Positions 62 to 59,890 of a stretch of DNA of 64,000 nt are shown piece after piece; within the stretch, counting starts at the first letter, position 1; each line of letters opens with the position of its first letter. Made by a program: the position numbers and the translations under genes. The stretch comes from a virus, in IMG/VR virus record IMGVR_UViG_3300045988_149468, positions 1 through 64,000 of that record. One strand, written 5' to 3'. The notes under the pieces were generated by a model, which worked only from the letters and a program-made list of their open reading frames with translations, had not been told where the DNA came from and did no database searches.

Positions 62-142
62 GTAAATATAATAATTAATAAGACATTAAATTTATCAACT
101 TTAGGATTCGATTATTAAATATAATATAGGAGTTGATTAATA

Positions 143-931
143 ATGAATGAAATAAAAATATTTAAAAGTGAAGAATTTGGTGAAATCAGATGTTGTCTAA
201 TTGATAATGAAATTTGGTTTGTAGGAAGAGATGTAATCAAAGACTTAGGCTATGATTTATCTACTGGAACAAGTTATACTCAATATATTAAAAAATATTG
301 TGATGAAGAAGATATTAAAAATTATAACAAAGAAACTCAAGTGCAATATACACTTGAGTTTGATTATAAAAAATTAGGGCAACGTGGTGGATTATTAATA
401 AATGAATATGCATTATATGATTTGGCTTTAGAATCACCATTGCCAAGTGCAAAAAAATTCAAACGTTGGATAACACATGAAGTAATACCACAAATCAGAA
501 AAACAGGTGGATATATTCCATTAAACAATGAAGATGATGAAGAAACTATTATGGCAAAAGCGTTAATAATAGCAAATAATACAATAAATAAAAAAGATGA
601 ATTAATTAAACAAATACAACCTAAAGCTGATTGGTTTGATGAATTCATGAGTAGTGAAGGATCATACAATTCAACTCAAATAGCAAAATTATTTAAATTA
701 TCATCAGCTCAAAAATTAAATAAACTTTTGAATGAAAATAAAATAATATATAGAAAAGGCAAAAATTGGTTGCCATACGCTGATGTGGATGAATCTTGGT
801 ATAAATTAGTTGTTGGAAATTCAAATGAACATAGTTATTCACAACTTAAATTTACACCTAAAGGGGTATATGAAATTAGCAAAACCTTAGAAATAAATTT
901 TACTGAAGAAGACTTAAAAGAACTAGCATAG
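143..931 (+). CDS. phage antirepressor (BRO-N domain plus KilA-C/ANT-like C-terminal domain)
   Basis: The N-terminus 'IKIFKSEEFGEIRCCLIDNEIWFVGRDVIKDLGY' is a typical Bro-N signature. The C-terminal 'PKADWFDEFMSSEGSYNSTQIAKLF' resembles antirepressor C-domains. An AGGAG RBS lies upstream. Confidence 0.8.
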   Translation: MNEIKIFKSEEFGEIRCCLIDNEIWFVGRDVIKDLGYDLSTGTSYTQYIKKYCDEEDIKNYNKETQVQYTLEFDYKKLGQRGGLLINEYALYDLALESPLPSAKKFKRWITHEVIPQIRKTGGYIPLNNEDDEETIMAKALIIANNTINKKDELIKQIQPKADWFDEFMSSEGSYNSTQIAKLFKLSSAQKLNKLLNENKIIYRKGKNWLPYADVDESWYKLVVGNSNEHSYSQLKFTPKGVYEISKTLEINFTEEDLKELA

Positions 932-957
932 AAATAATTTGAATATATTAATTAATA

Positions 958-992
958 ATACTATCTTTTTTAGGTGGTATTATTTTTTTATT
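958..992 (+). terminator. rho-independent terminator after the antirepressor gene
   Basis: The stem ATACTATC/GGTGGTAT (with G-U pairs) is followed by a T-run. A box copy at 942-958 precedes it. Confidence 0.55.
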
Positions 993-1096
993 TAAAATAC
1001 ATAAAAATACAAAATAATTTTAAAATTAATGTTGAAATATTAATCAATATGTGTTATTATTTAAATATAGAAATTAATAAAAGGGGATGATTTAAA

Positions 1097-1237: not shown

Positions 1238-1272
1238 AAAAATATAAAAATTAATAAAGGAGGTGATAGAAG

Positions 1273-2415: not shown

Positions 2416-2573
2416 TCATTAGCAAGATTAGTTCGGTATGTAGGGAGGTTTAACCCCGACTTTATGCTCTTGGAGAATTACACCAACCCAAGTAGCTTAG
2501 GCAAAAGGGAATTCGATGAAGAGAGAACCTTGTTTAATTGGAATATATTCTGTTATACAAGGATTAAAACAGG
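2340..2573 (+). ncRNA. candidate omega (re)RNA scaffold of tnpB copy 1
   Basis: A G+C-richer, hairpin-rich 3' tail runs from the end of tnpB to the terminator (e.g. GGGAGGTTTAACCCC). The position matches known TnpB guide RNAs. Ends and guide are not defined. Confidence 0.4.
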
Positions 2574-2705: not shown

Positions 2706-2781
2706 TTAAAAATATTTTCTTGACAAGTATTATTTTATGTGTTAAAATGTAAATATAATAATTAATAAGAGGTGGTAAAAA

Positions 2782-3540
2782 ATGAAAAATAGAACAGGTG
2801 AAATTAATTATAATAATTTTGGTAGTAAAATGATAATAAAAGAATATAGAAAATATTCAGATGTTGATATTTATTTTCCTAAGTATAATTGGACTGCTGA
2901 GAGTGTGCAATATAATAAATTTAAAAGTGGTGAAATAAAATGTCCTTACGAACCAAGAGTTTATAATCATGGATATGTTGGAGAAGGAAAATATAATTAT
3001 AAAGAACATAAAAGGCATTATACTACTTGGAAGAATATGTTAAAAAGATGTTATGACCCTAAATTTCATAAAAATAATTCAAGTTATATAAAATGTGAAG
3101 TTTTTAAGGATTGGTTGAATTTTCAAAATTTCGCCAAATGGTATGATGATAATTTTTATCAACTAGAAAATGAAGTTATGCATTTAGATAAAGATATTTT
3201 GTATAAACATAATAAAATTTATTCACCAAAAACATGTATTTTTGCTCCACAAAATATTAATATATTATTTATTAAATCTGAGAAAAGCAGAGGGGATGCA
3301 CCAATTGGAGTTTATTGGGATAAAATTAAAAATGTTTTCATAGCAAAAGGAACTATATTTGAAAATGGCAAAAGTAAAACTGTACACCTAGGTAGATATA
3401 ATAATTCTAATGATGCTTTTCAATCTTATAAAAATTTCAAAGAAAATCATTTAAAAGAAATCGCAAACTTATACAAAGATAGAATACCACAAAAATTATA
3501 TAATGCTTTAATAAATTATAAAGTAGAAATTACAGATTAA
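2782..3540 (+). CDS. AP2-domain DNA-binding protein (homing-endonuclease-associated type)
   Basis: The C-terminal 'PIGVYWDKIKNVFIAKGTIFENGKSKTVHLGRYNNSNDAFQSY' fits the AP2/ERF-like fold signature. It has its own promoter, box (2752-2768) and RBS. Confidence 0.55.
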   Translation: MKNRTGEINYNNFGSKMIIKEYRKYSDVDIYFPKYNWTAESVQYNKFKSGEIKCPYEPRVYNHGYVGEGKYNYKEHKRHYTTWKNMLKRCYDPKFHKNNSSYIKCEVFKDWLNFQNFAKWYDDNFYQLENEVMHLDKDILYKHNKIYSPKTCIFAPQNINILFIKSEKSRGDAPIGVYWDKIKNVFIAKGTIFENGKSKTVHLGRYNNSNDAFQSYKNFKENHLKEIANLYKDRIPQKLYNALINYKVEITD

Positions 3541-4531: not shown

Positions 4532-4766
4532 TTGTTATATTATATAGGCATACGGGGAACGTACAAAATATTTTTCCAGAAGTTGAAATTTTTATTTTTG
4601 ATTTTTTAGGATAAAAAGTTTTAAAATTTTGAGTTAGTTCTGGAAACCAAAAATAAAAAGTTAACTGATTAAAAATTATTTTTACATTTATTAATATTTT
4701 GTTGCATTAATTATTATAAGATGTTATAATATAAGTATAATAATTAATAAATGGAGGTATTACAAA

Positions 4767-5126
4767 ATGAATAAAAAAGAAAAATCAATATTATTAAATA
4801 CTTATAAAGAAGAATATACATTATTAAAAAATGGATTCGATTATAAAATGGATTCTATTAGAACTTTTAAACATTTACTTGATCAATTAGGATTAAATAA
4901 CGATAGAATAGAAATAGAAAATAATATCTATTTTGAAATTAATAATATTAAGGGTATGGTAAAAGCAGGTTACGAACGATTAATCGAAATAATAGCAAAA
5001 TACAATAATGATAATATAGTTAATATAGAGGATATAGAAGAAATATTATTTTCTATAGAATTTGAATTAACTGAAGAACATAAAAAGAATATAGAAGCCT
5101 GTTATAAACTAATAAATGAAGAATAA
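4767..5126 (+). CDS. hypothetical protein
   Basis: A promoter (TTGCAT...TATAAT), the box at 4734-4750 and a GGAGG RBS precede it. Confidence 0.55.
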   Translation: MNKKEKSILLNTYKEEYTLLKNGFDYKMDSIRTFKHLLDQLGLNNDRIEIENNIYFEINNIKGMVKAGYERLIEIIAKYNNDNIVNIEDIEEILFSIEFELTEEHKKNIEACYKLINEE

Positions 5127-5167: not shown

Positions 5168-5410
5168 TTGACTTATTCCAGTAGATCAACTTTTAAATTT
5201 TAATCTAATAACTATAATAAAAATGACCTTCTATATTCGATTTTAAAGGCATTGTAAAAAGTTTATTGATAGTTTATACCTTTAATCTTTAGAATTGATT
5301 TAAGAGGATATAAAAATAAATATAAAAAGTTTTATATTTTTATTGTATTATATTAATTAATGTAGTATAATATAAATATAAAAATTAATAAATAATTAGG
5401 AGGCAATAAG

Positions 5411-5707
5411 ATGAATAATATAAACATTCAAATATTAAGAAATATAAATTTAGGAGGTAATTTTTTAACTAACGCCGTATTATATAAAGGATATTTATTT
5501 ATAACAGATAACGAAATATTATTTGAAGAAAATTTAAATGTAATAAAAGATTATCCATACAATACTTTGGAAGAAAAACAATATAATAATTTTATGACTA
5601 ATGTTGATTATGTAATTATTAAAAGTTTTCATAAAGATTATGAATTTAATAAATTAACTGATGAGGACTTAATCCAATATACTATGGATGCATATAAAGA
5701 ATTATAA
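5411..5707 (+). CDS. hypothetical protein
   Basis: A promoter, the box at 5375-5391 and an AGGAGG RBS precede it. Confidence 0.55.
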   Translation: MNNINIQILRNINLGGNFLTNAVLYKGYLFITDNEILFEENLNVIKDYPYNTLEEKQYNNFMTNVDYVIIKSFHKDYEFNKLTDEDLIQYTMDAYKEL

Positions 5708-5885: not shown

Positions 5886-6010
5886 ATACCTTTAATTCGT
5901 GAACTACTCACGAGCTAAGCTCGTTGGCTTCCTAGGTAAGGTTACTATTGTAACTAATTTACTAGGCTCAAAAGATTGTTCCAATCTCTTATTTTTTTAT
6001 TATTGTAATA
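5886..6010 (-). ncRNA. candidate omega RNA and guide of the IS1341-like element
   Basis: In the minus-strand sense, structured sequence follows the tnpB stop (GTTAC-AATA-GTAAC and ACGAGC-TTA-GCTCGT hairpins). It ends at the inferred right end; the next ~20 nt of flank would be the guide. Confidence 0.45.
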
Positions 6011-7215
6011 TTCTCAATCCTTCATGTAATATATTTATACTTGCATTTATATCTCTATCATGATGCTTGCCACAATATGGACAAGTGAACTCTCTTATGT
6101 CTAATGGTTTTTTGCCTGTATTTTCACCACAATTAGAACATATTTGACTAGAAGGATAATATTTATCTACAAAAGAAATTGTTCTTCCATACCATTTAGC
6201 CTTATATTCTAATTGTCTTCTAAATTCATACCATCCTACATCTGATGCAGATTGAGATAAATATTTATTTTGTTGAATTTCTTTTACTTGTAAATCTTCC
6301 AAACATATTACTTGGTTTTCGTTTATAAGTTCAGAAGTTAATTTATGTAAAAAATCTTTTCTTTGATTAGCTATTTTTTCATGTAGTTTAGCAACTTTTA
6401 TTCTTTGTTTATTTCTGTTTTTACTACCTTTTTTCTTCCTAGATAACTTTATTTGTTCTTTAGCTAATTTATTTAATGATTTTTTCAAATATCTAGGATT
6501 AGGATATTTTATACCATCTGAAGTTATTGCAAAATCAGTTAATCCTAAATCTATACCAACTGCGAATTTACTTTTAGGTAACTGTTTTATTTCTTGATCC
6601 ACTAATATAGAAATATAATATTTATTATCAGGATTTTTAGATATTGTAGCTGATTTAATTATTCCATCTTTAGGTATTTGTCTATGTAATTTAATTCTAA
6701 CTAATGTTTTTAATTTTGGTAACTTAATATACTTGTCATCTATTATTTTTATTGTTTGTGTTTTTTGATTGTTATTTGTTGTATAATTATAATGATTATT
6801 CTTTTTAGATTTAAATTTAGGAAATCCGACTGATTTATCTCTAAAGAAATTTTTATATGCTTTGTCTAAATTCATTTGAGCATTAGCTAATGCTAAACTA
6901 TCCACTTCTTTTAACCATTGATATTCTTTTTTATACTGCGCAGGAGTATTATTTAACATTTTATTGTTTTCTTTATAATACTCTATTTTATCGTTTAACA
7001 TTTTGTTATATATAAATCTAACACTACCAAAACATTTAGAAAAATATATCTTTTGTTCTTTATTTGGATATAGTCTATATTTATATGCTTTTAACATTTT
7101 ATCACCTCCTTATACTATATAGTATTTCCATTTTAAGGTAAAAATAAACCTATTTTAACTATATTAAAAAGATAATAAAACGCCTTACAATGGAAATATA
7201 AAGGGATTTTTAATA
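5906..7215 (-). mobile_element. TnpB-only IS200/IS605-family (IS1341-like) insertion
   Basis: It has tnpB plus a subterminal hairpin at the right end (ACGAGC-TTA-GCTCGT). The right-end boundary at 5905/5906 comes from comparison with an uninterrupted paralogous sequence at about 5225-5290. The left-end boundary (about 7200-7215) is uncertain. A long-range inverted repeat, TATTTCCATT(T/G)TAAGG, lies at about 7121 and about 7185. Confidence 0.6.
6000..7097 (-). CDS. tnpB: TnpB (IS200/IS605-family OrfB), from a different lineage than the other two copies
   Basis: 'YKYRLYPNKEQ', 'VGIDLGLTDF', 'ICLEDLQVKEI' and 'CSNCGE...CPYCGKHHDRDINASINI' are present. Confidence 0.9.
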   Translation of the reverse strand: MLKAYKYRLYPNKEQKIYFSKCFGSVRFIYNKMLNDKIEYYKENNKMLNNTPAQYKKEYQWLKEVDSLALANAQMNLDKAYKNFFRDKSVGFPKFKSKKNNHYNYTTNNNQKTQTIKIIDDKYIKLPKLKTLVRIKLHRQIPKDGIIKSATISKNPDNKYYISILVDQEIKQLPKSKFAVGIDLGLTDFAITSDGIKYPNPRYLKKSLNKLAKEQIKLSRKKKGSKNRNKQRIKVAKLHEKIANQRKDFLHKLTSELINENQVICLEDLQVKEIQQNKYLSQSASDVGWYEFRRQLEYKAKWYGRTISFVDKYYPSSQICSNCGENTGKKPLDIREFTCPYCGKHHDRDINASINILHEGLRILQ

Positions 7216-7678: not shown

Positions 7679-7735
7679 CTCCTTTATATTTATTAATTTA
7701 TATACTTATATTATATATTAATTAATGTAATATTT

Positions 7736-7970: not shown

Positions 7971-8231
7971 TTATTTAAATAATTCATCCCATTCTTCAGC
8001 AAATTCTAAATCACTTTCATATTCTTCTAAATATTCTTTTAGTTGTTCAACTGTTTCTATATAAGGATTATTTATCCATTCATTTATTATGTCTAAACCT
8101 TTTTCAGTTATTTTTAAATCGTTCTTTTCTTCAGCTAAACCTCTATTAATTATATATTCTTTTGTATTATTTTCTATTTCTGTTTTACCTTCTTTTAACA
8201 TTATTAATGATTTTATTATTTGTTCATTCAT
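7971..8231 (-). CDS. hypothetical acidic protein
   Basis: It is bracketed by the two ~235-bp repeat copies. A box copy lies at 8252-8268. Confidence 0.55.
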   Translation of the reverse strand: MNEQIIKSLIMLKEGKTEIENNTKEYIINRGLAEEKNDLKITEKGLDIINEWINNPYIETVEQLKEYLEEYESDLEFAEEWDELFK

Positions 8232-8297
8232 TTTCTTTTTTCTCCTTTTCTTTATTAATTATTATATTTAAATGATAGCAAATTTAAAAATAAATTT

Positions 8298-9185: not shown

Positions 9186-9272
9186 AATATTACCTCCTAA
9201 TTATTAATTTATATTTTTATTACTGAAAAAGGGCTTTTATAGGTTAAACCCTTTAGAACCTTTTATTTTAAG

Positions 9273-10648: not shown

Positions 10649-10737
10649 TTTTACCCCTCCTGTTATTAATTTATATATTGGAGTTTTTAAAAGGAACTCC
10701 TAAACCTTTATTACTTATAATATGTTATCTAAATTGT

Positions 10738-10971: not shown

Positions 10972-11127
10972 TTTATTTCCCTCCTGTTATTAATTTATAT
11001 TTATATTGTATATTAATTAATGTTATTTGTCAACTACTTTTTATGTATTTACTATGTTTTTTTATTAACTTGTATCAGGTAAGATCAGATACTAATTAAT
11101 ATTTTGTAGGTTGATTTGATTTGCTAA

Positions 11128-11362: not shown

Positions 11363-11399
11363 AACTGAACCTCCTTAATTTTTATTATTTAATTTTATA

Positions 11400-13560
11400 T
11401 TTATATTATAGTCAGTTATATTAATTAATGCAAGTCGATTATAGTTTATTTATTTAAGTTATTATAATAATTTTGTTTAATTAAGCATGGTATATTTTAA
11501 GTTATCTTTTATTAATTATTGTAATTATATTAATTTACTTTATTAATTAATGAATATAGCATATTTTTAATTTTTTTATATTTATTTTTATAGATTATAT
11601 ATAGTAGATACAAATTAATTTTTATAGTTAGTAAAAACATACTTAACTCATTGCAATAACTTAATCATAAGTGTATTAATTAGATAGGTTATTTTGTAGG
11701 ATTAAGTATTAATAATTTGTATCTACTAATTAAGTTATTGTATATACTTACATATAATAAGTAATACGTTTCTATGTTATGTAATAGTGTTATATAAGAT
11801 TATAATAGTAGTATTACTATATTAGTGTATAGTTCTATTATCTGCATTAGTTGTTATATAAGAGTATGCGTTATGCTATTAGTTATCGTATAGTAATACT
11901 GTTATCATGTTATCTATTATTATATATATTGTTATTATGCTATCTGTATTAGTAGTTATTATATGTTATGTGAGAGTATTGTATAAGGTTATATAGTATA
12001 ATCTAATAAGTATCTTATATAGTAGTAGATTATATATCGTTTATAGTATTGCTGGATTAATATAGATATAATTTAATATACTTTTTTAATAGAAAAATTT
12101 TTATAATTTATTTTTTATTTTCTTTTTTTATATTATTGGATCAATAATATATTATGATTTATATTTGTACATTTGGAATAGGATTATATTTCTTTTTTTA
12201 ATAGTTATGTTAATATTCTATTATAAGTTGATTATCTTATAGCCTATTATATTTTTGTTCCAGATATATTTTTCTTGGTGGTATGATTTAATATACTTTA
12301 AGATTAAGAAAAGGATTAATTATTATTTATAGATATAATTTATTAATTTGTGTATTATTTATAGATTATAATTATAATAGCTTATATTGGCGTATAGAAG
12401 ATATTTTGACTATATTGCATTAAGGATAAATTATATTAGAATGTTTTTGTAACGTCTTATATTGGCGTATAGAAAGCCTGTTATATTGCAGCATCTAATA
12501 TTGTTATTATATATTGGTATATTAGGGATTATATTATTATCTGTTATTATTTTCCTTCTATTATATATAGTGTATCTGTATCATGCTATTAGTTATATAT
12601 TGTTATGTTAGTATGTATTGTTATTATGTTTTATTCTTTTATTATTTTTTTTATTTATTGAATGTCATAACAAGTATAATAGCGCATTAGAGAATATCAT
12701 AATATCAATATTGATCCTTTTATTGCCAACTAGAAAAAAATGTATTGCTATGATATTTTATTATTTTGTCATTGTTGTTATTAATTTATTTTTAATTATA
12801 TTGTTTATATATATTATTTTGTTATATTGTATTTGTTGTTATATATATTATTATATGTATTATTGTTAATTCTTTTTTCTATACACAAAATTTTTTTCAA
12901 TAACCTACAATAATTATTTTTCTATAGTATTAGTTTCAAAATATTACTCCCTCTTTTTTAGCTTCTTATTTTTTCAAATTCTAACAAGCTTCTTTTTAAG
13001 ATCACCCGTAAAGCATTCACCTATGGATTACATTTATTAATATATACGTTAATAAATGCAGGGGAGGTATTTTTATAATTTTACCTGTATTTTTTGTTGA
13101 AAATTATTTTAGTTGTTCATAATACACATATTTTCAAAAATACCATTCAAACATAACACGTACCACCTTCAAATTGTGTTTGTTTATTTAAAATACAACA
13201 TAAATAATTTTCAACAAAATAAAATTATCAATATAATAAAACAATTAAAACATTGAAATTCCAATATTCTTAAACTGTTATCAAGCATCAAACACATAAA
13301 TTTTATTTTAACTCAATAATATCCTAATATTTCAATAATCCAAAGTTGTGTAAAAGTGTAAATATTAATTCTAATTGATTATTTTTTGATATTGTTTTAA
13401 ATTTATTAAAATATCAATAGTAAATTCAAATAATATATTTATAAAAAGTGGTAAATGAAAATTAGCATATTTGATGTTAAAATGATGTTATTATGACATT
13501 ATAATTTATTAAATATGGTGCAAAATATAAAGATAACGTTAAAATAACAGTAAAATAAAG
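11400..13560. other. ~2.2-kb ORF-free, repeat-laden region between the leftward early operon and parMR
   Basis: It contains no credible ORF. Long stretches are built from TAT/GTT/TAG words with very few C on the plus strand (about 11750-12060 and 12480-12870). Several direct and inverted repeats are described in the findings. Confidence 0.7.
11602..11728. repeat. nested inverted repeat (potential ~130-bp cruciform or hairpin)
   Basis: TAGTAGATACAAATTA (11602-11617) pairs with TAATTTGTATCTACTA (11713-11728). An inner ACTTAATC/GATTAAGT pair lies between them. Confidence 0.6.
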
Positions 13561-14692: not shown

Positions 14693-14829
14693 TATTTATG
14701 GAGTGATTAAATTCACTCCTATTTTTTATGGTTTAAAATTCTATAAATATGGTAATAATATAAATATATTGACACATTTCTTTTTATGTGTTATAATGTT
14801 AATATATTAATTAATAAGGGGTTGATATT

Positions 14830-17660: not shown

Positions 17661-17971
17661 TAAGTAATATCAATATGTTTAAGTTGTCTAAATACTAGTA
17701 AAGACTATTAAATACTATATATAAATACTAAAGAAATACTAAGAAAAGGGGAAAATTACTTTACTTTTTTAATTATTTTTGTCAGAAATATTAAAAAATT
17801 TAGATTTTTCTTTAAAAAATGGTTGACATAATTGTAAAAATATGGTAAAATTATAATATAATAATCAATATTGTTTAAATTTTTATTATTATACGATAAA
17901 AAGGGGAGTTTAAGTTTAAAAACCTCAACAAATGATAACAATAATAAGTAGATGATGTGATAAAAATTATA

Positions 17972-18006
17972 TCAATATAGAAATTAATAACAGATTAAAC
18001 AGTAAA
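17972..18006 (+). repeat. 35-nt direct repeat, left copy, flanking the GH13 gene
   Basis: TCAATATAGAAATTAATAACAGATTAAACAGTAAA matches 19161-19195 with 2 mismatches and includes the box. Confidence 0.8.
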
Positions 18007-18089: not shown

Positions 18090-19169
18090 ATGCAGAATAA
18101 GAAAAGAATAATTTATGAATTATATTTTCCAGCTTTCTGTAGGGACTTTCAAGATTTAGCAAATAAAATACCATACTTTGTAGAATTAGGAGTTACTACT
18201 TTATGGTTAACTCCTATATTCCCAAGTCCAACAGAACATGGATACGACATTATCAATCATTTTGACATTAAAAAAGAATATGGTAGTTTTAGAGATTTTG
18301 ATAATTTTATTGAGAAAGCACATGAGAATGGGTTAGAAGTTTTATTAGATTTAGTACTATGTCACACAAGTTCAGAACATTTAATGTTTAAAGAATCTAT
18401 TCAAGGTAAAAACGATTGTTACTTTTGGAGCAACCATAAATTAGACGACACCTGGAAAATTTGTAATGAGAATAAACAGTATTATCTAGCCAAATGGTAT
18501 TACACGATGCCCCAACTGAATAATCAATCAGCACAAGTACGAGATTTAATAAAGGACATAATAAAGTTTTGGTTGGTAGATCATAATGTAGATGGATTTA
18601 GACTGGATGCAATAAAATATGCTAGTGGTGACCCAATAGAATTTTGGAAGTGGTTTTGTGAGGAGGTCTACAAAATAAAACCAAATGCTTATCTAGTTGG
18701 AGAGTGTTGGGAAACATTTGAAATAAGTAATGAATACGCTAAAGATACAGGAATGAAAACATTTAACTTTGAACAGGCAGGCTGGATAAAAAATGCAGTA
18801 TTACATGATGGTAGGTTTGAAGTTAAGAATGATATAAATAATGCAGTTATTTTTTTAGATAATCACGACATGACTAGAATAGCAGTAGATTGTAATTTTG
18901 ATACATTTAAGATTAAAAAATTATTAGAATTAATGTTTACATTTAAGAATAATGATATATGTATTTATTATGGAACTGAAATAGCAATGGGTGTCCCTAA
19001 TGGTCATGTGCATTGTGGAGGTTATGGAGATTTTCACTCAAGAACAAAAATGAACTGGCATGAAGTAGAAAGACAGAGAAGAGACCCAAATAGTATATTT
19101 AATTATATCAAAAAATTAATACATGAATATAAAAGTATAGGTAAAGATAGAATAGAAAATTCAATATAG
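18090..19169 (+). CDS. GH13 (alpha-amylase family) glycoside hydrolase, short form
   Basis: The four GH13 regions are 'LLDLVLCHTS' (I, N to C), 'DGFRLDAIKY' (II), 'YLVGECW' (III) and 'IFLDNHDMTR' (IV). The Asp/Glu/Asp catalytic residues are retained. No C-terminal domain is present. I prefer the ATG at 18090 (RBS GAGGTG) to the track start at 18081. Confidence 0.8.
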   Translation: MQNKKRIIYELYFPAFCRDFQDLANKIPYFVELGVTTLWLTPIFPSPTEHGYDIINHFDIKKEYGSFRDFDNFIEKAHENGLEVLLDLVLCHTSSEHLMFKESIQGKNDCYFWSNHKLDDTWKICNENKQYYLAKWYYTMPQLNNQSAQVRDLIKDIIKFWLVDHNVDGFRLDAIKYASGDPIEFWKWFCEEVYKIKPNAYLVGECWETFEISNEYAKDTGMKTFNFEQAGWIKNAVLHDGRFEVKNDINNAVIFLDNHDMTRIAVDCNFDTFKIKKLLELMFTFKNNDICIYYGTEIAMGVPNGHVHCGGYGDFHSRTKMNWHEVERQRRDPNSIFNYIKKLIHEYKSIGKDRIENSI

Positions 19170-19195
19170 AAATTAATAACAAATTAAATAGTAAA
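19161..19195 (+). repeat. 35-nt direct repeat, right copy
   Basis: See 17972-18006. It overlaps the GH13 stop codon. Confidence 0.8.
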
Positions 19196-22012: not shown

Positions 22013-22089
22013 CATATTAATAATCATTGACAATAAATAACAAATATTATAATATATAAATATAGAAATTAATAAGAGGAGATGATATT

Positions 22090-24677: not shown

Positions 24678-24734
24678 AAACTATTGACAAATAAAATATT
24701 ATATTATATAATATAAATATATAAATTAATAATC

Positions 24735-25857: not shown

Positions 25858-25903
25858 AATATAGAAATTAATAAGAGAGATTGATTATAAAGGGGATTAT
25901 ATT

Positions 25904-28089: not shown

Positions 28090-29430
28090 TGAAAACTTAT
28101 AAATATTTATTGACATATTGATGATTCTATGATATAATCTAATTATGATAATTAATAAGGGGAGTGATGAGATGAAATCTTTTATTGTTAGATTGTATCC
28201 AACTAAAGAACAAGAGATTCTGTTCTATAAACATATTAACTGTCAAAGATATGTTTATAATTGGGCATTGAATTTGAATAATGAATTATACAGAAAAGAT
28301 AAAAAGAAATATTCTTCTACTGAGTTAGGTAAAATGTTAACACAATATAAAAAACAAGAAGTGTGGTTGAGTGAAGTTTCTAATGCAACATTAAAAGAAT
28401 CAATTAGAAATTTAGATAAAGCTTATACTAATTTCTATAAGAAAAGAGCAAAATTGCCTAAATTTAAAAGTAAAAAGAAATCTAAATTATCTTTTTACAG
28501 CAGATATGACAAAATTAAATTTTATCAAAATAATACTGTTAATTTAGAAAAAATAGGTAAAGTTAAATATAGATCTAGTTATGATATTGATTTTACTAAA
28601 GAAAATTCATTTAAAAATCCTCATGTGAGTTTCAATGGTAGATGTTGGGTTCTCACGTTTGGATTAGAATTAAAAAATGAAGTTGACATACCAACAGACA
28701 ATGTTATTGGAATCGACTTAGGAATTAAATATTTAGCAGTATGTAGCGATGGAGTTGTTTATAAAAATATAAATAAAGATGCTTCTGTTAAAAAATTAGA
28801 AAAAAGACTTAAAAGATTACAAAGACAAGTGAGTAGAAAATATGAATTAAATAAGAAGGGAGGGAATCGTTACATTAAAACTAATAATATTAAAAAGTTA
28901 GAAAAAGATATTAAGAATATTCATCGAAGACTTAAGAATATAAGATTAAATCATTTACATCAAACAACTGCTGACATAGTGAAAACCAAACCATACAAAG
29001 TAGTTATGGAAGATTTAAATATTACAAATATGATGAAAAATAAATCAATAGCAAAACACGTTTCTAAATTGGGCTTATATGAGTTTATTAGACAAATGAA
29101 ATATAAATGTGAATGGAATGGTATTGAATTTATACAGGTAGATAGATATTATCCATCAAGCAAAATGTGTAGTAAATGTGGAAACATTAAACATGATTTG
29201 AAATTGTCGGATAGAAGATATACTTGTAAATGTGGATTAAATATTGATAGAGATTTTAATGCTAGTTTAAATCTTATGAATTATGGATTATCACATTAAA
29301 GATAACTATAATATGTACCCACTCGTTGATGGGGAATTTAAGTCCTGGGACTATCAATTACTAAAGTAGGTTCGCCGAAATAGGATAGGATGAATAGGAA
29401 AATAAATTTATAACTTTTTATAAGTTTTAA
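28090..29430 (+). mobile_element. TnpB unit (promoter, tnpB, structured 3' RNA) inserted between terS-like and terL
   Basis: TTGACA...TATAAT and the box at 28142-28158, then tnpB, then a structured tail (GGGGAATTTAAGTCC...). The element ends are not defined. Confidence 0.5.
28172..29299 (+). CDS. tnpB: TnpB (paralog of 1273..2415)
   Basis: 'FIVRLYPTKEQ', 'IGIDLGIKY', 'VMEDLNITNM' and 'CSKCGN...CKCGLNIDRDFNASLNL' are present. It shares 'RLKKLQRQVSRKYE' with copy 1. I place the start at ATG 28172 (RBS AAGGGGAG) rather than the track start at 28145. Confidence 0.9.
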   Translation: MKSFIVRLYPTKEQEILFYKHINCQRYVYNWALNLNNELYRKDKKKYSSTELGKMLTQYKKQEVWLSEVSNATLKESIRNLDKAYTNFYKKRAKLPKFKSKKKSKLSFYSRYDKIKFYQNNTVNLEKIGKVKYRSSYDIDFTKENSFKNPHVSFNGRCWVLTFGLELKNEVDIPTDNVIGIDLGIKYLAVCSDGVVYKNINKDASVKKLEKRLKRLQRQVSRKYELNKKGGNRYIKTNNIKKLEKDIKNIHRRLKNIRLNHLHQTTADIVKTKPYKVVMEDLNITNMMKNKSIAKHVSKLGLYEFIRQMKYKCEWNGIEFIQVDRYYPSSKMCSKCGNIKHDLKLSDRRYTCKCGLNIDRDFNASLNLMNYGLSH

Positions 29431-33701: not shown

Positions 33702-33753
33702 AATTGAATATGATAATTAATAAGGGAAGCGAGGAATATAAGGAGGCTAGTAT

Positions 33754-34695: not shown

Positions 34696-34867
34696 TTTTT
34701 CGTTTATCGTTATAAATTACCTTCACTACGTTCAATCAAGTTATTCATATAAACATAGGGTGGTTAAGTTATAATAAAGTGAAAATTAAGAAGGAATATG
34801 ATAATTAATACCTCGCAAAATGGAGGGATACAAACAACAAAACGTTGCAAAATGGAGGAGAAATAAA

Positions 34868-36849: not shown

Positions 36850-36900
36850 TAGGAATATATAAATTAATAATAGAAAAATAGGTTAAAATAGGAGGAAATT

Positions 36901-37920: not shown

Positions 37921-37994
37921 TTTGATAAATATAATAATTAATAACAGTTCCCTTTTTATTAAGGGGACTTATATAAAATAGGAGGAGATTAATA

Positions 37995-42153: not shown

Positions 42154-42253
42154 AATTGAATATATTAATTAATAAGACACTTAATAACTCTCTATGAAAA
42201 TAGGGAGTTATTTTTTTTATGTATTTTTAAATTTTATTTTAAAAGGAGGAATT

Positions 42254-47411: not shown

Positions 47412-49000
47412 AAACAACATTCTCCGTATGTACAGAAATGTGCATAGGACACAACTTGAATTGCAGGTACAACCTAAGAGCCTTACACCACAATATTGGA
47501 GAAATCACAATATGAAGGTACGAAAGTAGAAACAACGTAAGGATAGATATAAGGTTAAATCCTAAGTATCTAAATGTAATTAAAGTAATTATTACATTAC
47601 AATGGTAGTTCATGCAGAGAAATTCCTAAATTTAATTTATAAAATCATTGACAATATTTACCATTGGTGTTATTATTTAAATATAATAATTAATAAGGAG
47701 GTGATTATTATGGCAAAAAAATATAATGAAAAAGATATTATTGAAATTTTAGAAAAAAATAATGTGATATTATTATCAAATTATAAAAATAGCACAACAG
47801 AATTAAAAATGATTTGTAGCTGTGGAAAGCATTTTAGTAAATCGTTTAAAATAATGAAACGAAGTGGAAATTTTAAATGTAATGATTGTATAAAAAAAGA
47901 ACAAGTAAAAAAACAAACTATGCCTTATGAAATTGCAAAACAGAGAGTTGAAAACTTAGGATATAAATTGTTAACAACCAAAGAAGAATATATTAAAGCT
48001 AGTGAAAAAAACAAATTACAATGTCCAAATGGGCATATATATGAACAAATATTATTAGATTTATTTAAAGGACACAGATGTAAAAAATGTGCATCTAAAA
48101 TAAACGGAGATAAATCTAAATTTAAATACGAAGATGTTAAAAAGGTTATAACTGATTTAGGATTTGAATTATTATCAGCAGAATATGTAAATAATGATAC
48201 TCCTTTAAAAGTTAAATGTAAAAAATGTAATCATATATTTTCCCCAACTTTACATAATTTAAAAAACGGAACTGGCTGTCCAAATTGTTATTCAAAAATT
48301 AGGGGTAAATCTACAATCATACCATACGAGGATAGAGTAAATTATGTTGAAAATTTTAATTATAAAATCTTAACACCAAAAGAAGAATATATTAATGGTG
48401 AAAATAAGGTGAAATTAAAATGTTCAAAAGGACATATTTATGAAGCTAGATTGCATGATTTTTACATTGGAAATAGATGTCCGCATTGTAAGGAATCTAA
48501 AGGTGAAAGAAAAATTGAAAGATTTTTAAAAGAAAATGACATTAGATTTGAAAAACAATACATTATAAAAAGATGTAAATTTAAAAGATATTTACCTTTT
48601 GATTTTTATTTACCTGATTATAACCTTCTTATAGAATATGATGGGAAGCAACATTTTGAAATAAGTGATTATTTTGGGGGTTATGAAAGTTTCATAGATA
48701 CCAAGATAAGAGATACAATTAAAAACATTTATTGTCAAAATAATAACATAGATTTATTGAGAATCTCTTATTGGGATTATAAAAATATTGAGAATATATT
48801 GGCTGATAAATTAAAATTAAACAAGGAAAACTTTCAACGACTAGAGTTGAGATACTCGTAGGATATAAGCGATTGATATCCGAAGTGGGTTGCCCCTAAC
48901 GTAAAGACGAGGGTGAAGAAATAGTCTGCTCATCTATAGAAATATAGAGAAGTTCATAAGAGAACTGCATAGGTATAGCGAATCTATGTGAACAAAAAGG
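47412..49000 (+). mobile_element. group I intron 4 of the tape-measure gene, carrying a nuclease ORF
   Basis: The 5' part (GAG|AA-ACAACA-TTCTC, AATTGCAGGTAC, AATCCTAAGT) and 3' part (ACGACTA 48837-48843, AAATAGTC 48919-48926, GAAGTTCATAAGAGAACTG 48949-48967) are split by a 1.15-kb ORF. That ORF has its own TTGACA promoter and box (47680-47696). Confidence 0.75.
47710..48861 (+). CDS. intron-encoded homing-endonuclease candidate: four tandem zinc-ribbon modules plus a Vsr/DUF559-like PD-(D/E)XK nuclease domain
   Basis: There are four repeats of '...C..G/C......F..G..CP.C'. The C-terminus is 'GERKIERFLKENDIRFEKQY...LPFDFYLPDYNLLIEYDGKQHFE'. ATG at 47710 follows a GGAGGTG RBS. The ORF 3' end overlaps the intron core. 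Confidence 0.65.
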   Translation: MAKKYNEKDIIEILEKNNVILLSNYKNSTTELKMICSCGKHFSKSFKIMKRSGNFKCNDCIKKEQVKKQTMPYEIAKQRVENLGYKLLTTKEEYIKASEKNKLQCPNGHIYEQILLDLFKGHRCKKCASKINGDKSKFKYEDVKKVITDLGFELLSAEYVNNDTPLKVKCKKCNHIFSPTLHNLKNGTGCPNCYSKIRGKSTIIPYEDRVNYVENFNYKILTPKEEYINGENKVKLKCSKGHIYEARLHDFYIGNRCPHCKESKGERKIERFLKENDIRFEKQYIIKRCKFKRYLPFDFYLPDYNLLIEYDGKQHFEISDYFGGYESFIDTKIRDTIKNIYCQNNNIDLLRISYWDYKNIENILADKLKLNKENFQRLELRYS

Positions 49001-53970: not shown

Positions 53971-54708
53971 ATGTTTTTAAGTCCTTATTTTTCATTTAAA
54001 GGGATTGATTGTAGAAATTATTTTATAATGATAACTACTACTGATAAAGATGATATAGTAGAAGTCGGTGTTCCATACAAAACAAATTTAACAATGGAAA
54101 ATTCATTTCATTATACGGAAGAAGATGAAACTCCAGATCCAATAGAATTTAATCTAACATTAGTAGATGAAAATAGAATACCTTTAAAATGGACGAATGA
54201 ATATTTTCAAAATATTAAAGATTGGTTGATAAGCGATGATTTTGAAGAATTTGTAAGTTATGATAATCCAGAGTATGTTTATTATTTTAAATGTATAAGT
54301 ATAGTAAAAAATTTCACATATGGTAAAGAAGGTTGGATAACTACAACATTTCAACCTTTAAATCATTATGCATATAAAAAACTGAACATCGATAAACTTG
54401 TGGATGGAAAAGAATATATTGAAATTAATAATATAACTAAAAAGGATTATGAACCAAAAATAATAATTAATAATCTAGGTACAGAAAATAAAACAATAAG
54501 AATAAATAATATGTTATTAAAAGATATAAAGAATAATGAAAATGTAACAATAGATAATTATATGTGTACTATATATGGGGATATGACTGGAAATTTATTA
54601 TCTAATAGTAATAGAAATTGGATTGTATTAAAACCTGGTCTAAATAAGATTCTAGTAGAGGGAAGTATGTTTATAAATATATTATGTGAATTTCCAGTCA
54701 TAATATAA
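53971..54708 (+). CDS. distal tail protein (Dit, siphovirus tail component)
   Basis: It lies immediately after the TMP gene. The N-terminus 'SPYFSFKGIDCRNYF' is typical of this family. Confidence 0.65.
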   Translation: MFLSPYFSFKGIDCRNYFIMITTTDKDDIVEVGVPYKTNLTMENSFHYTEEDETPDPIEFNLTLVDENRIPLKWTNEYFQNIKDWLISDDFEEFVSYDNPEYVYYFKCISIVKNFTYGKEGWITTTFQPLNHYAYKKLNIDKLVDGKEYIEINNITKKDYEPKIIINNLGTENKTIRINNMLLKDIKNNENVTIDNYMCTIYGDMTGNLLSNSNRNWIVLKPGLNKILVEGSMFINILCEFPVII

Positions 54709-57700: not shown

Positions 57701-58729
57701 AAATATTCTAGTGAGACAATATATTCTCAAGGTAAACAATATACTTACAAACAACCAGGAAAAGGGAAAATCGGATTTGATTGTAGTTCGTTTGTCGGAG
57801 TTTGCTATCAAAACGCTGGATATGACTTCATGAAAGGTTTATCTTGTGCTGGTGGTAATTTACAATCTACAGCTAAGAAACACAATGCTAAGATGTGGAG
57901 ATATGTTGATAGTAAATTTGAGAAATGTTTACCAGGCGATATAGTAATGATGGCAAATGATTCCGTTGATTTAACTAAAAGTAATATGGCAACTTGTTCA
58001 ACACATCATACAGCTATTTACATGGGAAATGGATATATAGCCGAAGCTGTCGGGTATTCGACAGGAATAGTGAAAAGAAAGAGAACCCCTAATAGTCAAT
58101 GGTTCTTTATGAGAATTGAAGAATTAACTAAGACAGATAAAAAATCAAATGATGATTCTAGTGAAAGCGGAAGTAATGATAATTCAAGTTCAGATAATGG
58201 AAGTGGAAAAAACTGTATAAATCAATCAGGTACCATTGATGGACATAAATATATTTATAGATTTGCAAAAGCTCGTTGTACGGCTTATGGAGATAGTTCA
58301 AGTACAGGTGCTGGTGGCAAATTAACTATTGGAAAAAGTTGTGGTGCACATAATCTTCCGTATTCTACTAAGCTTTTTATACCTTCAACTGTTGGTAAAT
58401 TTGGTAATAAAGATGGCATATGGGAAGTTAAAGACACAGGTGGATATACAACTGATTTTGACCTATTGATTGCTAAATCTGATAGTCAGGCTGAAAAATT
58501 ATTAGGAAATCCTTTGGTGACAGACGTATACGTTCTCGAATGGGGAGATGGTAAAACAGCATGGTCATTTACGGAAGCCATTGAATGGTGTAATAAATAT
58601 TATGGAGTAGGTGCTTTTCATACTTCATGGAAAACATATATGAAATATGGTGGTTGTACAATAAACTTCTGGAGATTCAAAGACCATGACAAAACTATAA
58701 AATCTAAATCTTGGTATAATAAATTATAA
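54722..58729 (+). CDS. tail-associated lysin (Tal) with multiple enzymatic domains
   Basis: It has an N-terminal prophage-tail endopeptidase-like region and two Big_2-like repeats ('VTG(I/V)...ATV...G.V.GVNYG.C.I'). An SGNH-like segment follows ('LFIGDGRIAEMN', degenerate). It also has NlpC/P60 ('GFDCSSFVG...HHTAIYMGNGYIAEA') and a C-terminal 3D-like domain ('RCTAYGDSSSTGAGG...VKDTGGY'). Confidence 0.7.
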   Translation: MKIKQLRTINKLELCKINKTIIGEIPIKFLTEEECKLDEIGTLNLQIPKYFQDNHTLKKTEVLIYDDLKNERFIKVNESDYYVIKEIKEDKINKVKTITTYSYEKKLEKNNIVLSDISLSLLDVDEENEIYSFNDELYKTTGWSLGYVDDTVRYDETGRPRVRVQENTDTSFYQFIKETIQEQFCCIADFDIKNKKVNLYDEDSFGDEIKIILNKDNYLKNLENTSNTTSLVTQLTLQGNEDKCIVEDANPNGTNYIEDYSYFVETEEMSEELINALNLYNKLTEKRIAEWRELNTQKSILLSDINNKTGNENILTSMVKEYENYIIAHENIEEEGMEYDLTDFKNQLQIKRDELVELNKELTDLEQQLNNVNNRIKELNGLILKETSKDGQGNFIFNDKLLDELKEFTYNDTYSEDSFIDANEILRTGRHLLESKCKPTVEYSIDVNDFTSRIISNKTKGEWQGELSLGDLIVLYDKETKKEEYVYFVGWNKKYNYQNDSNSVTTELSLDLSNKKTNKTNTKVIADLLKDSKNNKKQINSTKHLLNDQKYNRFKSNLLNNEDILLDLDEPRLNDMTKVTGIDLNISTLTLDINVSKQIKAYVRPTTAKNTNVIWSSSDNNIATVSTTGLVKGVNYGSCTITAITEEGNFKSVCQVTIQKSIENEVKVTGVQVLNSNIALDIGEEEYIIPNILPNNATNQDVTYVSSSPTIATVDNTGKITGVNYGICEIKVIPVDNPEISARCYISISTEDKKDYTTLNNALFIGDGRIAEMNSLGILNKLYVDAKADVDITYFNSRINTYPVNPTCIIVMPNINDLSEQGAFNVKTLLTTLKNKYPTKNIYLVTPLPVGVNYESSKLYSEVNNQITKFNSLIKDYANLLNVKSVNANLNLVTNGTLNSYYSKDGYYLTETGYRILCNNITNTILNYMNVKQDTPKDDDDKKDDDNNSSGGLSKQRQLIIDRAEEIVKMCKNGKTWYSQYNRTTDWNKKQIIKYSSETIYSQGKQYTYKQPGKGKIGFDCSSFVGVCYQNAGYDFMKGLSCAGGNLQSTAKKHNAKMWRYVDSKFEKCLPGDIVMMANDSVDLTKSNMATCSTHHTAIYMGNGYIAEAVGYSTGIVKRKRTPNSQWFFMRIEELTKTDKKSNDDSSESGSNDNSSSDNGSGKNCINQSGTIDGHKYIYRFAKARCTAYGDSSSTGAGGKLTIGKSCGAHNLPYSTKLFIPSTVGKFGNKDGIWEVKDTGGYTTDFDLLIAKSDSQAEKLLGNPLVTDVYVLEWGDGKTAWSFTEAIEWCNKYYGVGAFHTSWKTYMKYGGCTINFWRFKDHDKTIKSKSWYNKL

Positions 58730-58815
58730 AATTTTACAAAAATAGGTTTAAAATTTCCTCCTTTTGATAACAATATATAATATGAATATAAAAATTAATA
58801 AGGGGGAATTAACTT

Positions 58816-59829
58816 ATGTATTTTAATTTAGAACACAAACAGATGGTAGAAAATCGTGGCTATATTTATATTTACAGTTATGATAGAAAAGAAGTAACAT
58901 TAGATAGTAAAAATAAGAATAAAAATAAAATTCATATAAGAGTGAAATGTCCTTATTGTAAGAAAAAATATGACATAGATATTTATACATTTAGAAATGG
59001 TTCACATTGTAAATATTGTTGTCATGAATATAAAAAATCATTTGCATATTATATTGAAGAAGAATTAGGGTTAGACCTTAATGATGTTTGGGATTGGGAA
59101 GAGAATAGCAGACGAGGAATTAATCCTTGGGATATATTAATAAAAAGTGATAAAATAATTTATATATGGTGTCAAGATAAATGGTATCATGGTAGTTATA
59201 AAACAGCACCTAGCTTATTTTACAAAGGAAGAAGATGTCCCTATTGTAATCCTTTTGCTAGTCATAGAGTGCATAAGTTAGATAGTTTTGGATATTTATA
59301 TCCAGAGAAAGCTAAGTACTGGGATTATGAAAAAAACAAAAATAAAAAACATAAAACTCCATTTGATGTGGCACCTCATAGTACTATTGAAAAATATTGG
59401 TTTAAATGCGAAAAATGTAATACACCATTTGAGAGAAGTTTAAACAGCATGAATCGAGAAGATACAGGGGTAGTATGTGAACAATGTAATGGGTCTCAAC
59501 TAGAACAAAAAGTAAAAAAAGTTTTAGACAAATATAATCAATTTTATTATAGAGAAAAAGAATTTAATAATTTAATAGGTCATGGAAAAAGAAATTTAAG
59601 ATTTGATTTTTATTTACCTAATCATAATTTATTAATAGAATGTAATGGTAAACAACATGAAGAATTTACATCTTTCTTTTGTAAAAATAAAGCAGACTTT
59701 GAAAGACAATTAGAGCACGATAGACGCAAGAAACAATACTCAATTGACCATAACATCAACTTCTTAGAAATTTGGTATTATGATATAGATAATATAGAAC
59801 AAATACTAACAAAGCAATTAAATCTATAA
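58816..59829 (+). CDS. free-standing paralog of the intron nuclease (zinc ribbons plus Vsr/DUF559-like domain)
   Basis: 'CPYCKKKY...CKYCC' and 'RRCPYCNP...' are present. The C-terminus is 'LEQKVKKVLDKYNQFYYREKEF...LRFDFYLPNHNLLIECNGKQHEE'. It has its own promoter and box (58785-58801). Confidence 0.6.
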   Translation: MYFNLEHKQMVENRGYIYIYSYDRKEVTLDSKNKNKNKIHIRVKCPYCKKKYDIDIYTFRNGSHCKYCCHEYKKSFAYYIEEELGLDLNDVWDWEENSRRGINPWDILIKSDKIIYIWCQDKWYHGSYKTAPSLFYKGRRCPYCNPFASHRVHKLDSFGYLYPEKAKYWDYEKNKNKKHKTPFDVAPHSTIEKYWFKCEKCNTPFERSLNSMNREDTGVVCEQCNGSQLEQKVKKVLDKYNQFYYREKEFNNLIGHGKRNLRFDFYLPNHNLLIECNGKQHEEFTSFFCKNKADFERQLEHDRRKKQYSIDHNINFLEIWYYDIDNIEQILTKQLNL

Positions 59830-59890
59830 TATAGAAATTAATAAGGCATCTTAGTGTGCCTTATTTTTATGTTTAAAAGGAGGTGAAATA

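Follow-up and report, generated by a model that had tools for sequence, protein, structure and literature searches.

What is the function of a short sequence that recurs throughout a phage genome, oriented with the neighbouring genes? The question is raised by a 64-kb window (the whole stretch analysed, positions 1 to 64,000 of IMG/VR record IMGVR_UViG_3300045988_149468), which comes from an uncultured human-gut phage-plasmid of ~25% G+C, kin of SPβ and phiCD211. A previous reading of the letters alone (the original prediction) had listed about 30 copies of a 17-nt box and likened them to the stoperators of mycobacteriophage L5, with an mRNA element or a promoter core as alternatives. We examined the existence, enrichment, orientation and geometry of this box, the purifying selection on it, its lineage specificity and its distribution over the genome. 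Tentatively, and with a confidence approaching an even chance, we read the box as a protein-binding site in DNA, operator- or stoperator-like, for a putative phage repressor.

The box has the form AATATA-N2-AATTAATAA; it spans 17 bp (positions b1-b17) and is asymmetric, not a palindrome. All 23 plus-strand and six minus-strand positions listed in the original prediction hold the sequences ascribed to them, to within 1 nt. The 17-mer pattern AATATRNWAATTAATAA has 21 exact matches in the window and 51 at up to two mismatches, compared with 14.8±3.9 in dinucleotide-preserving shuffles. For the 9-nt core there are 55 occurrences where 18 are expected, and, as had been pointed out, it is found by chance inside coding sequences (CDSs). 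Using a position weight matrix (PWM) built from the exact copies and a threshold of ≥12 bits, we recovered 29 copies, a density of roughly 0.45 per kb; Markov shuffles of order 1, 3 or 5, a check that the original prediction had proposed, gave ~1. When intergenic DNA alone was shuffled (13 kb, 24% GC), 0.3-0.4 fully intergenic copies were expected, and 26 were present. phiCD211 (132 kb, 26% G+C) has one PWM match, and unrelated AT-rich viral loci, used as a control, have 9 extra matches in 397 kb. Chance and base composition were rejected by both kinds of shuffle and by these controls.

Copies are spread across more than 60 kb. Of the 29, 27 are intergenic, against a non-coding share of only 20% of the window by a crude gene map. 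The claim that every extended copy lies outside CDSs thus held with exceptions: the copy at 54457-54473 is within a CDS, and those at 19163 and 59828 overlap stop codons. Among three degenerate copies that had been proposed, the one at 11385 is within two mismatches, and those near 9605 and 9810 are too degenerate to count. Orientation agreed fully with the original prediction, as all 29 window copies, and 70 of 72 in independent related loci, point the same way as the neighbouring genes. We rejected Rep_3 iterons and centromere repeats as an explanation, since the boxes are dispersed and none lies in the 11.4-13.6 kb stretch without open reading frames (ORFs) beside parM and rep.

The element has no match in PLSDB, in isolate genomes (capsid query) or among GenBank phages (nucleotide search); IMG/VR and human-gut assemblies hold near-identical and diverged relatives, and gut samples that contain the element include those behind ERZ773178, ERZ1026772 and IMG 3300045988. 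We retrieved relatives with a composite pattern (-35 hexamer, 17 nt, -10 hexamer, 3 nt, box). This yielded 28 metagenomic stretches, mostly from human gut, many of them box-rich yet barely alignable to the window; plain box-pattern scans of IMG/VR gave mostly single chance matches. Box-dense relatives include L229 (16 boxes in 15 kb), L239 (8 in 6.6 kb) and one 41.8-kb contig (19). Pooling of the lineage gave 120 non-redundant boxes, of which 46 follow a full σA-type promoter, 10 follow a -10 hexamer alone and 64 are promoter-less. Relatives with 72-84% portal identity share the box, and share it at syntenic positions, among them the two that flank the capsid gene; a relative with 36% portal identity has no box. 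No sister lineage with a different box was found among the relatives compared. phiCD211 has no comparable upstream word, and on this ground we rejected the box as a general feature of phiCD211/SPβ-like phages. The 20 kb past the right end of the window (tail fibres, lysis) contain one good copy.

The placement of the box is rigid at promoters. Where the original prediction had given a distance of 2-8 nt, the -10 hexamer is separated from the box by exactly 3 nt in every promoter-linked copy of the window, and by 3 nt in 43 of 53 promoters across the lineage. All 11 intergenic promoters of the window that have at least 11 of 12 consensus matches are box-linked, with the box at about -3 to +14. 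With respect to genes, 73 of the 120 boxes are followed by a Shine-Dalgarno sequence (SD) and a start codon, the SD directly after b17 in 43 of these, and the stop codon of the upstream gene overlaps the box in 20 of 36 scorable cases. Many promoter-less junctions thus run from stop codon through box to SD. Some boxes are distant from the next start codon (61, 99 and 858 nt). In a minority arrangement, seen as predicted at 942, 37928, 42159 and 59828 and several times in relatives, a stop codon is followed by the box and then by a terminator-like hairpin. The promoter and box at 24684-24732 drive a CDS-free stretch that holds a tRNA-Trp gene. This stretch (24684-25590, ~850 nt without CDS) contains the tRNA-Trp at 25459-25534 and a weaker tRNA-like match at 25257-25317; in relatives L243 and L244, a 208-aa gene takes its place.

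Boxes are also unevenly distributed over the genome. Early and accessory regions have about one box per gene and the late operon is sparse; its structural/tail region is nearly box-free, though the genes there have strong SDs. Neither rep nor parM has a box upstream, and parM is box-free in three lineages. As had been stated, the HNH endonuclease genes (2782-3540; 47710-48861) and tnpB genes (1273-2415; 28172-29299) carry the box. We rejected the box as an intrinsic part of the tnpB insertion sequence, since the nearest genomic TnpB (L122, 68% identity) has a promoter without a box.

To the anatomy of the box, both halves contribute. When copies were anchored on the 9-nt core alone, the AATATA half was 78-100% conserved in promoter-linked and promoter-less copies alike, and the spacing between the halves was 2 nt in 82 of 86 instances. 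The minus-strand copies had been described as having spacers 0-2 nt shorter; specifically, those at 8793, 9201 and 10987 are 15-nt forms without the 2-nt spacer. In 60 promoter-less boxes, every position from -40 to -1 carries <0.3 bit, and the edges are sharp at b1 and b17. We favour, at slightly less than even confidence, a putative binding site made up of two half-sites, AATATA and AATTAATAA, 2 nt apart.

In alignments of ≤93% identity, the box is 95.6% identical, compared with 86.5% for non-coding flanks and 75% for third codon positions. Because its identity exceeds both in these diverged alignments, the comparison indicates that the box is under purifying selection. Substitution rates in orthologous alignments were 13.8% for the 3-nt gap (-3 to -1), 1.1% for b1-b3, 3.4% for b4-b6, 24% for the degenerate b7-b8, 0.4% for b9-b17 and 8.2% for positions +1 to +10 past the box. 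Transcription usually starts at the seventh base after the -10 hexamer. From this established promoter geometry and the 3-nt gap, we infer that +1 is b4, an A preceded by T. Positions b1-b3, which are 90-100% conserved in promoter-linked boxes, should therefore lie upstream of the transcript yet are constrained, and the constraint begins at b1 in both promoter-linked and promoter-less contexts. This boundary, together with the rigid spacing, the boxes before terminators and at the tRNA promoter, and the box-free late genes, is most simply explained if the full 17 bp are recognised as DNA.

The main rival is that the box works in RNA, as a module of the 5′ untranslated region just before the SD that controls how the mRNA is translated, how stable it is or how it is processed. 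Its reader could be the ribosome or an RNA-binding protein from phage or host, or the box could merely keep the SD unstructured. We consider the module, with any of these modes of action, rather unlikely; SD abutment, the Pistol ribozyme described below and the spacer-less copies keep it alive. Strict co-orientation with genes is what such a leader would show, and so are the SD and start codon after 73 boxes and the 0-nt gap in 43, where b16-b17 (AA) extend the SD. However, an enhancer of translation should always stand shortly upstream of a start codon: some boxes precede terminators, some are 61, 99 or 858 nt from a start and one is at the promoter of a tRNA or non-coding RNA, and most late structural genes have strong SDs and no box. 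The spacing to the promoter would set the box at the extreme 5′ end of primary transcripts, and Pistol cleavage would begin a transcript 8 nt ahead of box 8793, so that transcription starts and ribozyme cleavage would both put a box near a 5′ end. Yet at promoters b1-b3, presumably untranscribed, are as constrained as the rest, with a sharp onset at b1. Three other copies are preceded by structured RNA elements, and the 15-nt spacer-less forms would be easier to tolerate in single-stranded RNA; on the other side, Rfam searches of 137 kb of other box-rich loci gave no ribozyme, and RNA complementary to the box was not seen. Thus, the suggestion of an mRNA leader, processing site or translation enhancer is weakened by the terminator and tRNA contexts, the box-free late genes and the constraint on b1-b3.

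Two Pistol ribozymes, at 8813-8884(-) and 11123-11195(-), lie between cistrons of the leftward early operon; both are full-length, scoring 63.6 and 58.6 bits (gathering score 34.5). The first, which ends 4 nt before a box, would leave a 3′ cleavage product whose first base is 8 nt ahead of the box and 26 nt ahead of the SD. Here the original prediction had seen a G+C-containing hairpin; the structured element is present and is specifically the Pistol ribozyme. The other intergenic spacers of this operon are occupied by G+C elements (~10706-10679(-), 9655-9625(-), 9258-9225(-) and, weaker, 9852-9823(-)) that can be drawn as H-type pseudoknots, each followed by a box or box-like sequence and an SD. 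One begins with AGTTGTCAGGGGATCAACTCTAAAAA, near the Pistol P1/linker AGTTGTTTGGGCAACTCTAAAAA; a permissive Rfam scan did not call these elements Pistol fragments. We rejected a general partnership between box and ribozyme, since none occurs in the 137 kb of other box-rich loci and the permissive scan finds only the two Pistols.

We next consider the box as a promoter, or the core of one, for phage-specified machinery, either the sigma-like protein encoded at 19210-20448 or a phage RNA polymerase, with transcription starting at its 3′ end. This we regard as unlikely. As a self-contained, oriented, intergenic 17-bp unit ahead of genes, the box recalls T7-type and T4 late promoters, and boxes flank the capsid gene at syntenic positions in relatives; its density, however, is greatest in early, not late, regions. 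The base past the box is G in 51% of promoter-less copies, but these copies have no conserved -35-like or other upstream partner (<0.3 bit in 60 boxes), which a σ70-family factor needs, and the best-conserved positions, b9-b17, would be spacer or discriminator. An SD abutting the box would leave leaders of 0-3 nt, the stop-box-terminator order, which recurs independently, would have the promoter fire into a terminator, and the exact 3-nt gap to a σA -10 hexamer would be unexplained. The ORF at 19210-20448 matches the PHROG 5767 'sigma factor' family (E 2e-70) and is at the position of yonO, but phiCD211 has the same sigma-like gene (39% identity) and no box, and no YonO homologue was found in the window or its relatives. 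These points weaken the earlier suggestion that the box is the promoter core for this factor.

The 19210-20448(+) product is a 412-aa protein that matches PHROG 5767 over its full length, with weak similarity to σ70/ECF region 4 and a zinc-ribbon-like C-terminal end; the gene lies where SPβ has the single-chain RNA polymerase gene yonO. Because of this position, it probably encodes a late-transcription factor of phiCD211-like phages.

RfaH/ops, λ Q/qut and N/nut are models for control of elongation, and the box could be a site of this kind, read in the non-template strand or the nascent RNA by a pausing or antitermination factor. We hold this to be improbable, and no less so a scheme in which RNA polymerase is modified at the start of each unit and again before terminators. 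The box is orientation-locked and always in transcribed DNA, just past promoters and just ahead of several terminator-like hairpins. However, an SD rather than a terminator follows most boxes, and in the systems described so far a genome has one or a few such sites rather than 50-100. Positions b3-b8 form a -10-like hexamer (TATAAT, TATAGA etc.) at about -1 to +5, as in σ-dependent promoter-proximal pauses, yet b7-b8 vary, with the result that the final T, critical to a -10 element, is missing from many copies. The annotated part shows no gene for NusG, RfaH or a Q-like protein.

Lastly, the box could be a recombination linker, a short shared sequence at gene boundaries that promotes cassette exchange between related phages. 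The box is indeed at gene boundaries, relatives have boxes in tandem, boxes are found on HNH and tnpB cassettes, and some indels begin at a box: the gene 33754-34695, which stands between two AATATGAT-type boxes, is absent from relative L121. But 5 of 30 intergenic breakpoints were near a box against 3.6 expected, and the exact -10 spacing, the orientation lock and the box-free late junctions would be unexplained. We rejected this very improbable reading because breakpoints are not enriched at boxes. The indel itself (33707-34811) is a box-bounded gene cassette in which AATATGAT represents a rarer box type, and the L121 alignment breaks at the 3′ edge of the first box.

A repressor site accommodates the placement of the box as follows. 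The window encodes a Rep_3 initiator and a ParM-like actin whose partner is weakly ParR-like; these genes suggest a temperate plasmid lifestyle, in which the element is probably carried as a plasmid prophage. During such carriage, a phage-encoded repressor would bind the boxes. At promoters it would block open-complex formation or promoter escape, and at internal boxes it would form a polar barrier against read-through, comparable to the L5 stoperators. The element encodes three kinds of antirepressor (Bro-N/KilAC, ORF6N/KilAC and Rha), and these would lift the silencing. We infer both the existence of the repressor and repression as the function of the box. This reading is favoured because the strong promoters are box-linked, rep and parM are box-free, antirepressors are present, phiCD211 promoters have operator-like local repeats in the spacer and at +1, and SPβ, L5 and P1 provide precedents. 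Thus, the stoperator idea of the original prediction is the best supported, by the unit, its orientation, selection on it and its placement; the repressor it calls for was not found, and tests for MrpR and YonO homology were negative.

Several observations weigh against a repressor. Pfam, PHROG and NCBIfam scans of ~50 proteins of this partial genome gave no repressor candidate; gp71 and C1 were not compared. In the window, ~400 kb of relatives and phiCD211, tblastn with SPβ YopR (E≤0.01) detected no MrpR/YopR homologue, and the window and relatives contained no YonO or AimR homologue. The product of ORF 24369-24677, put forward earlier as a DNA binder, has no detectable family or PDB match. 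The only ORF found with a tyrosine-recombinase fold is L250:13790-14773, on a 117-kb IMG/VR contig, ~17 kb beyond the right end of the window. It encodes a 327-aa tyrosine recombinase with an intact catalytic R, H-x-x-R and H...Y, follows endolysin genes directly after a terminator and has no box; it is likely to be a resolvase or integrase (cf. SPβ YomM), not an MrpR-type repressor. Further, the box is unchanged among relatives whose portals are 72-84% identical, and a faster diversification is often seen in immunity specificities. The 32 near-consensus promoters of phiCD211 have no universal box; such a box is therefore not a necessity for this type of phage. Some features would suit an RNA leader too: the SD that abuts b17 in 43 of 73 cases, the three copies that follow a ribozyme or structured RNA element, and the three copies that lack the spacer and stand behind structured RNA elements. 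Part of the conservation of b1-b3 at promoters could come from constraint on the promoter itself (the discriminator).

Local repeats accompany promoters in phiCD211 and in the window. Many σA promoters of phiCD211 (NC_029048.2; L136-L138), for example at 24634, 106881 and 127996, are accompanied by a local direct repeat: one copy lies between the -35 and the -10, the other just past the -10 or at +1 (e.g., GTATCACCAATAA, TCCGAAAAACG). This suggests many separate local operators where the phage of the window has one universal box. In the window, the palindrome CATTAATTAATAT (core ATTAATTAAT) lies at 5350-5362(-), 7715-7727(-), 11010-11022(-) and 11418-11430(-). The palindrome is within the -35/-10 spacer of a subset of the box-bearing promoters, 8 of 43 non-redundant ones in the lineage; the window has these four exact 13-mers and, at ≤1 mismatch, 12 copies against 3.2 expected. 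Its position and its symmetry are those of a classical operator for a dimeric repressor, so the palindrome may be the true immunity operator, which would make the box a second layer or something else and counts as a further point against a repressor that acts at the box.

DNA and RNA readings could also be combined. The box would then be a universal "gene-start cassette" in a clade of gut phage-plasmids, and it would be read twice: as DNA bound by a global silencer (~50-100 sites per genome) and as RNA, where a 14-nt 5′ end, made by initiation or Pistol cleavage, marks phage messages for a phage-specified factor. The joint claim, with both of its levels, seems to us fairly improbable.

The copies in the window are collected in Table 1.

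Table 1. Individual copies of the box in the window. Promoters are written as -35 hexamer, spacer length, -10 hexamer and gap to the box (nt).
Feature	Position	Strand	Context
Box	65..81	+	TTGACA-17-TATAAT-3; before Bro-N/KilAC antirepressor gene 143-931, 61-nt leader
Box, promoter-less	942..958	+	10 nt past stop of 143-931; then terminator-like hairpin and T-run
Box	1064..1080	+	Promoter TTGAAA-17-TATTAT-3
Box	1241..1257	+	12/12 consensus promoter; before tnpB 1273-2415
Box	2752..2768	+	Promoter-linked; before free-standing HNH/AP2 endonuclease gene 2782-3540
Box variant AGTTAATAA	3846..3862	+	Promoter TTGACT-17-TATAAT-3
Box variant AGTATA...	4734..4750	+	Behind TTGCAT...TATAAT and 3 nt; before 4767-5126
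Box	5375..5391	+	Behind TTGTAT...TATAAT and 3 nt; palindrome ATTAATTAAT in spacer; before 5411-5707
Box variant	7690..7706	-	Promoter TTGAAA-17-TATAAT-3, palindrome in spacer; before 7301-7669
Box	8252..8268	-	Promoter TTGAAA-17-TATCAT-3; before 7971-8231
15-nt form, AATATA joined to AATTAATAA	8793..8809	-	4 nt past Pistol 8813-8884; then SD and ATG of 8565-8777
15-nt form	9201..9217	-	After hairpin/pseudoknot-like element; then SD and ATG of 8901-9185
Box, promoter-less	10663..10679	-	Directly after hairpin/pseudoknot-like element; then SD and ATG of 9857-10648
15-nt form	10987..11003	-	Promoter TTGACA-17-TACAAT-3, palindrome in spacer; before 10738-10971
Degenerate box, 2 mismatches	11385..11401	-	Behind TTGCAT...TATAAT; before 11195-11362
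Box	14801..14817	+	12/12 consensus promoter; before PAPS-reductase-like gene 14830-15645
Degenerate box AATATAATAATCAATAT	17855..17871	+	3 nt past promoter TTGACA-17-TAAAAT
Perfect box	17974..17990	+	In leader, 99 nt ahead of gene 18090-19169
Box, promoter-less	19163..19179	+	Its TAG is the stop of 18090-19169; 30 nt before sigma-like ORF 19210-20448
Box	22059..22075	+	Promoter TTGACA-17-TAATAT-3; before DNA methylase gene 22090-24063
Box	24716..24732	+	12/12 consensus promoter; non-coding stretch with tRNA-Trp, no CDS for 858 nt
Box, promoter-less	25858..25874	+	Directly past stop of 25591-25857; before YonJ-like phosphoesterase gene 25904-27043
Box variant ATTATGAT...	28142..28158	+	12/12 promoter; within tnpB insertion 28066-29435, absent from L121
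Box, promoter-less	33707..33723	+	5 nt past stop; mosaic breakpoint relative to L121 at 3′ edge of box
Box variant, ends ...AATAC	34795..34811	+	With 33707 flanks gene 33754-34695, absent from L121
Box	36854..36870	+	3 nt past TATAAT without good -35; 4 nt past stop; before capsid (YonB-like) gene 36901-37920; syntenic in L243
Box	37928..37944	+	7 nt past capsid stop, then hairpin; syntenic in L242 and L243
Box	42159..42175	+	5 nt past stop, then terminator-like hairpin with T8
Box	47680..47696	+	Promoter TTGACA-17-TATTAT-3; before HNH endonuclease gene 47710-48861, tape-measure intron region
Box-like 17-mer AAAATAAT...	54457..54473	+	Inside CDS 53971-54708; probably a chance match or relic
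Box	58785..58801	+	3 nt past TATAAT, poor -35; before 58816-59829
Box	59828..59844	+	Overlaps stop of 58816-59829; then terminator-like hairpin

The gene content places the element among known phages. Its terminase shares ~41% identity with the enzymes of phiCD211-like phages from Clostridioides and SPβ-like phages from Bacillus, and the gene order of phiCD211 is kept: partition gene, sigma-like gene, tRNA, YonJ-like exonuclease, YonG-like gene, terminase, portal and YonD/YonB-like head genes, followed by a tape-measure gene split by introns. Besides its antirepressor genes, the window holds three tnpB genes, three group I introns and the two Pistol ribozymes. The introns (45683-45995, 46174-46512 and 46567-46871, one below the gathering score) interrupt the tape-measure gene, the pieces of which are at 43779-45698 and ~49064-53935 with the HNH gene 47710-48861 between them; phiCD211 is arranged likewise. 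Intron presence is polymorphic, as relative L120 lacks exactly 46577-46922. Two tnpB genes (1273-2415; 28172-29299) each have a RAGATH-18 RNA just 3′ of them, at 2467-2527(+) and 29344-29400(+), and this placement agrees with the published reRNA guides of IS607-type TnpB (PMC11061315); the third tnpB gene is at 6000-7097(-). Compared with L121, 28066-29435 is a clean insertion between the YonG-like and terminase genes, and the inserted DNA includes a consensus promoter and a box. A 2.2-kb, ORF-free, very AT-rich stretch (11400-13600) separates parM from the leftward early operon; it has several short direct repeats (e.g., TTATATTGGCGTATAGAA twice, 75 nt apart) and no good box, and is probably an origin of replication or a site for partition. 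In the 20 kb past the right end of the window, the only genes found are for tail, lysis and recombinase functions.

If a repressor does bind the box, low-GC gut phage-plasmids would have evolved on their own a mode of genome-wide silencing, through one oriented, asymmetric site, that today is described for L5-type mycobacteriophages and, in a different form, for P1. The design, with the site in the same position at every strong promoter, would be unusually strict. This would offer a handle to predict the regulon, immunity group and lysogeny switch of an uncultured, apparently widespread human-gut phage clade, as well as a compact promoter-operator module for AT-rich Firmicutes. Should the gene-start cassette prove true, it would be the first stoperator-type system outside actinobacteriophages, denser and more regular than any known. 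If RNA is where the box acts, it would instead be a rare case of a phage with a universal, sequence-specific leader, and would give Pistol ribozymes their first functional context. Because the box is short, invariant and abundant, DNA and RNA readings are directly testable.

How does the box compare with known systems? A literature search on the word 'stoperator' returned papers that all concern actinobacteriophages. The repressor of L5, gp71, is a monomeric immunity repressor with two domains (helix-turn-helix and stoperator domain). L5 has more than 20 oriented, asymmetric 13-mers in promoter and short intergenic spaces, their orientation follows transcription, and these stoperators block elongation (PMC9283540). 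Like them, the box is asymmetric, dispersed and present in many copies (29 in 64 kb; 120 in the lineage), occupies promoter and intergenic sites (27 of 29 intergenic; 46 promoter-linked and 64 promoter-less in the lineage) and is oriented with transcription (29/29; 70/72). Unlike the G+C-rich 13-bp site of L5, it is 17 bp of pure A/T, its hosts are Firmicutes-type rather than Actinobacteria, and roughly half of its copies keep an exact spacing to consensus σA promoters, at -3 to +14. Density in the early region, at about one per gene, is also higher than in L5.

The C1 operators of P1 have an asymmetric 17-bp consensus and number ~22 over the plasmid-prophage genome (PMC8546580). Here, too, a dispersed asymmetric 17-bp site is found on an element with plasmid functions (Rep_3, ParM), and the KilAC/Bro-N antirepressor genes are reminiscent of the antirepressor-based immunity circuit of P1. 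The two sequences are unrelated (ATTGCTCTAATAAATTT in P1) and the host phylum differs; copies are far more numerous here, uniform in position relative to the -10 and strictly co-oriented.

SPβ, whose terminase is ~41% identical and whose yon/yom structural module is shared, is a related phage. Its SPBRE is a 15-bp repeat at the promoter regions of ~10 early or regulatory genes and is the site of the master repressor MrpR (YopR) (PMC10516654). In the window, ~400 kb of relatives and phiCD211, no MrpR/YopR homologue was found, and the ~10 SPβ sites contrast with roughly 0.45 boxes per kb. There are no reports of SPBRE at promoter-less junctions or of a strict orientation. Of the box copies, more than half are promoter-less, and all strong promoters are box-linked.

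Phage-specific promoters are 17-23 bp long in T7-type phages, and T4 late promoters have the form TATAAATA. The box shares with these a compact, oriented, highly conserved intergenic word before many genes; it differs in that the SD abuts it, several copies directly precede terminators, it is fixed 3 nt past a host-type -10, it is densest in early regions, and no phage RNA polymerase was found. In all respects that can be read from sequence, then, the box behaves like the L5 stoperators, and it resembles the P1 C1 operators. Host phylum, sequence and density set it apart from these, and the uniform placement at the start of every strong promoter is new as well.

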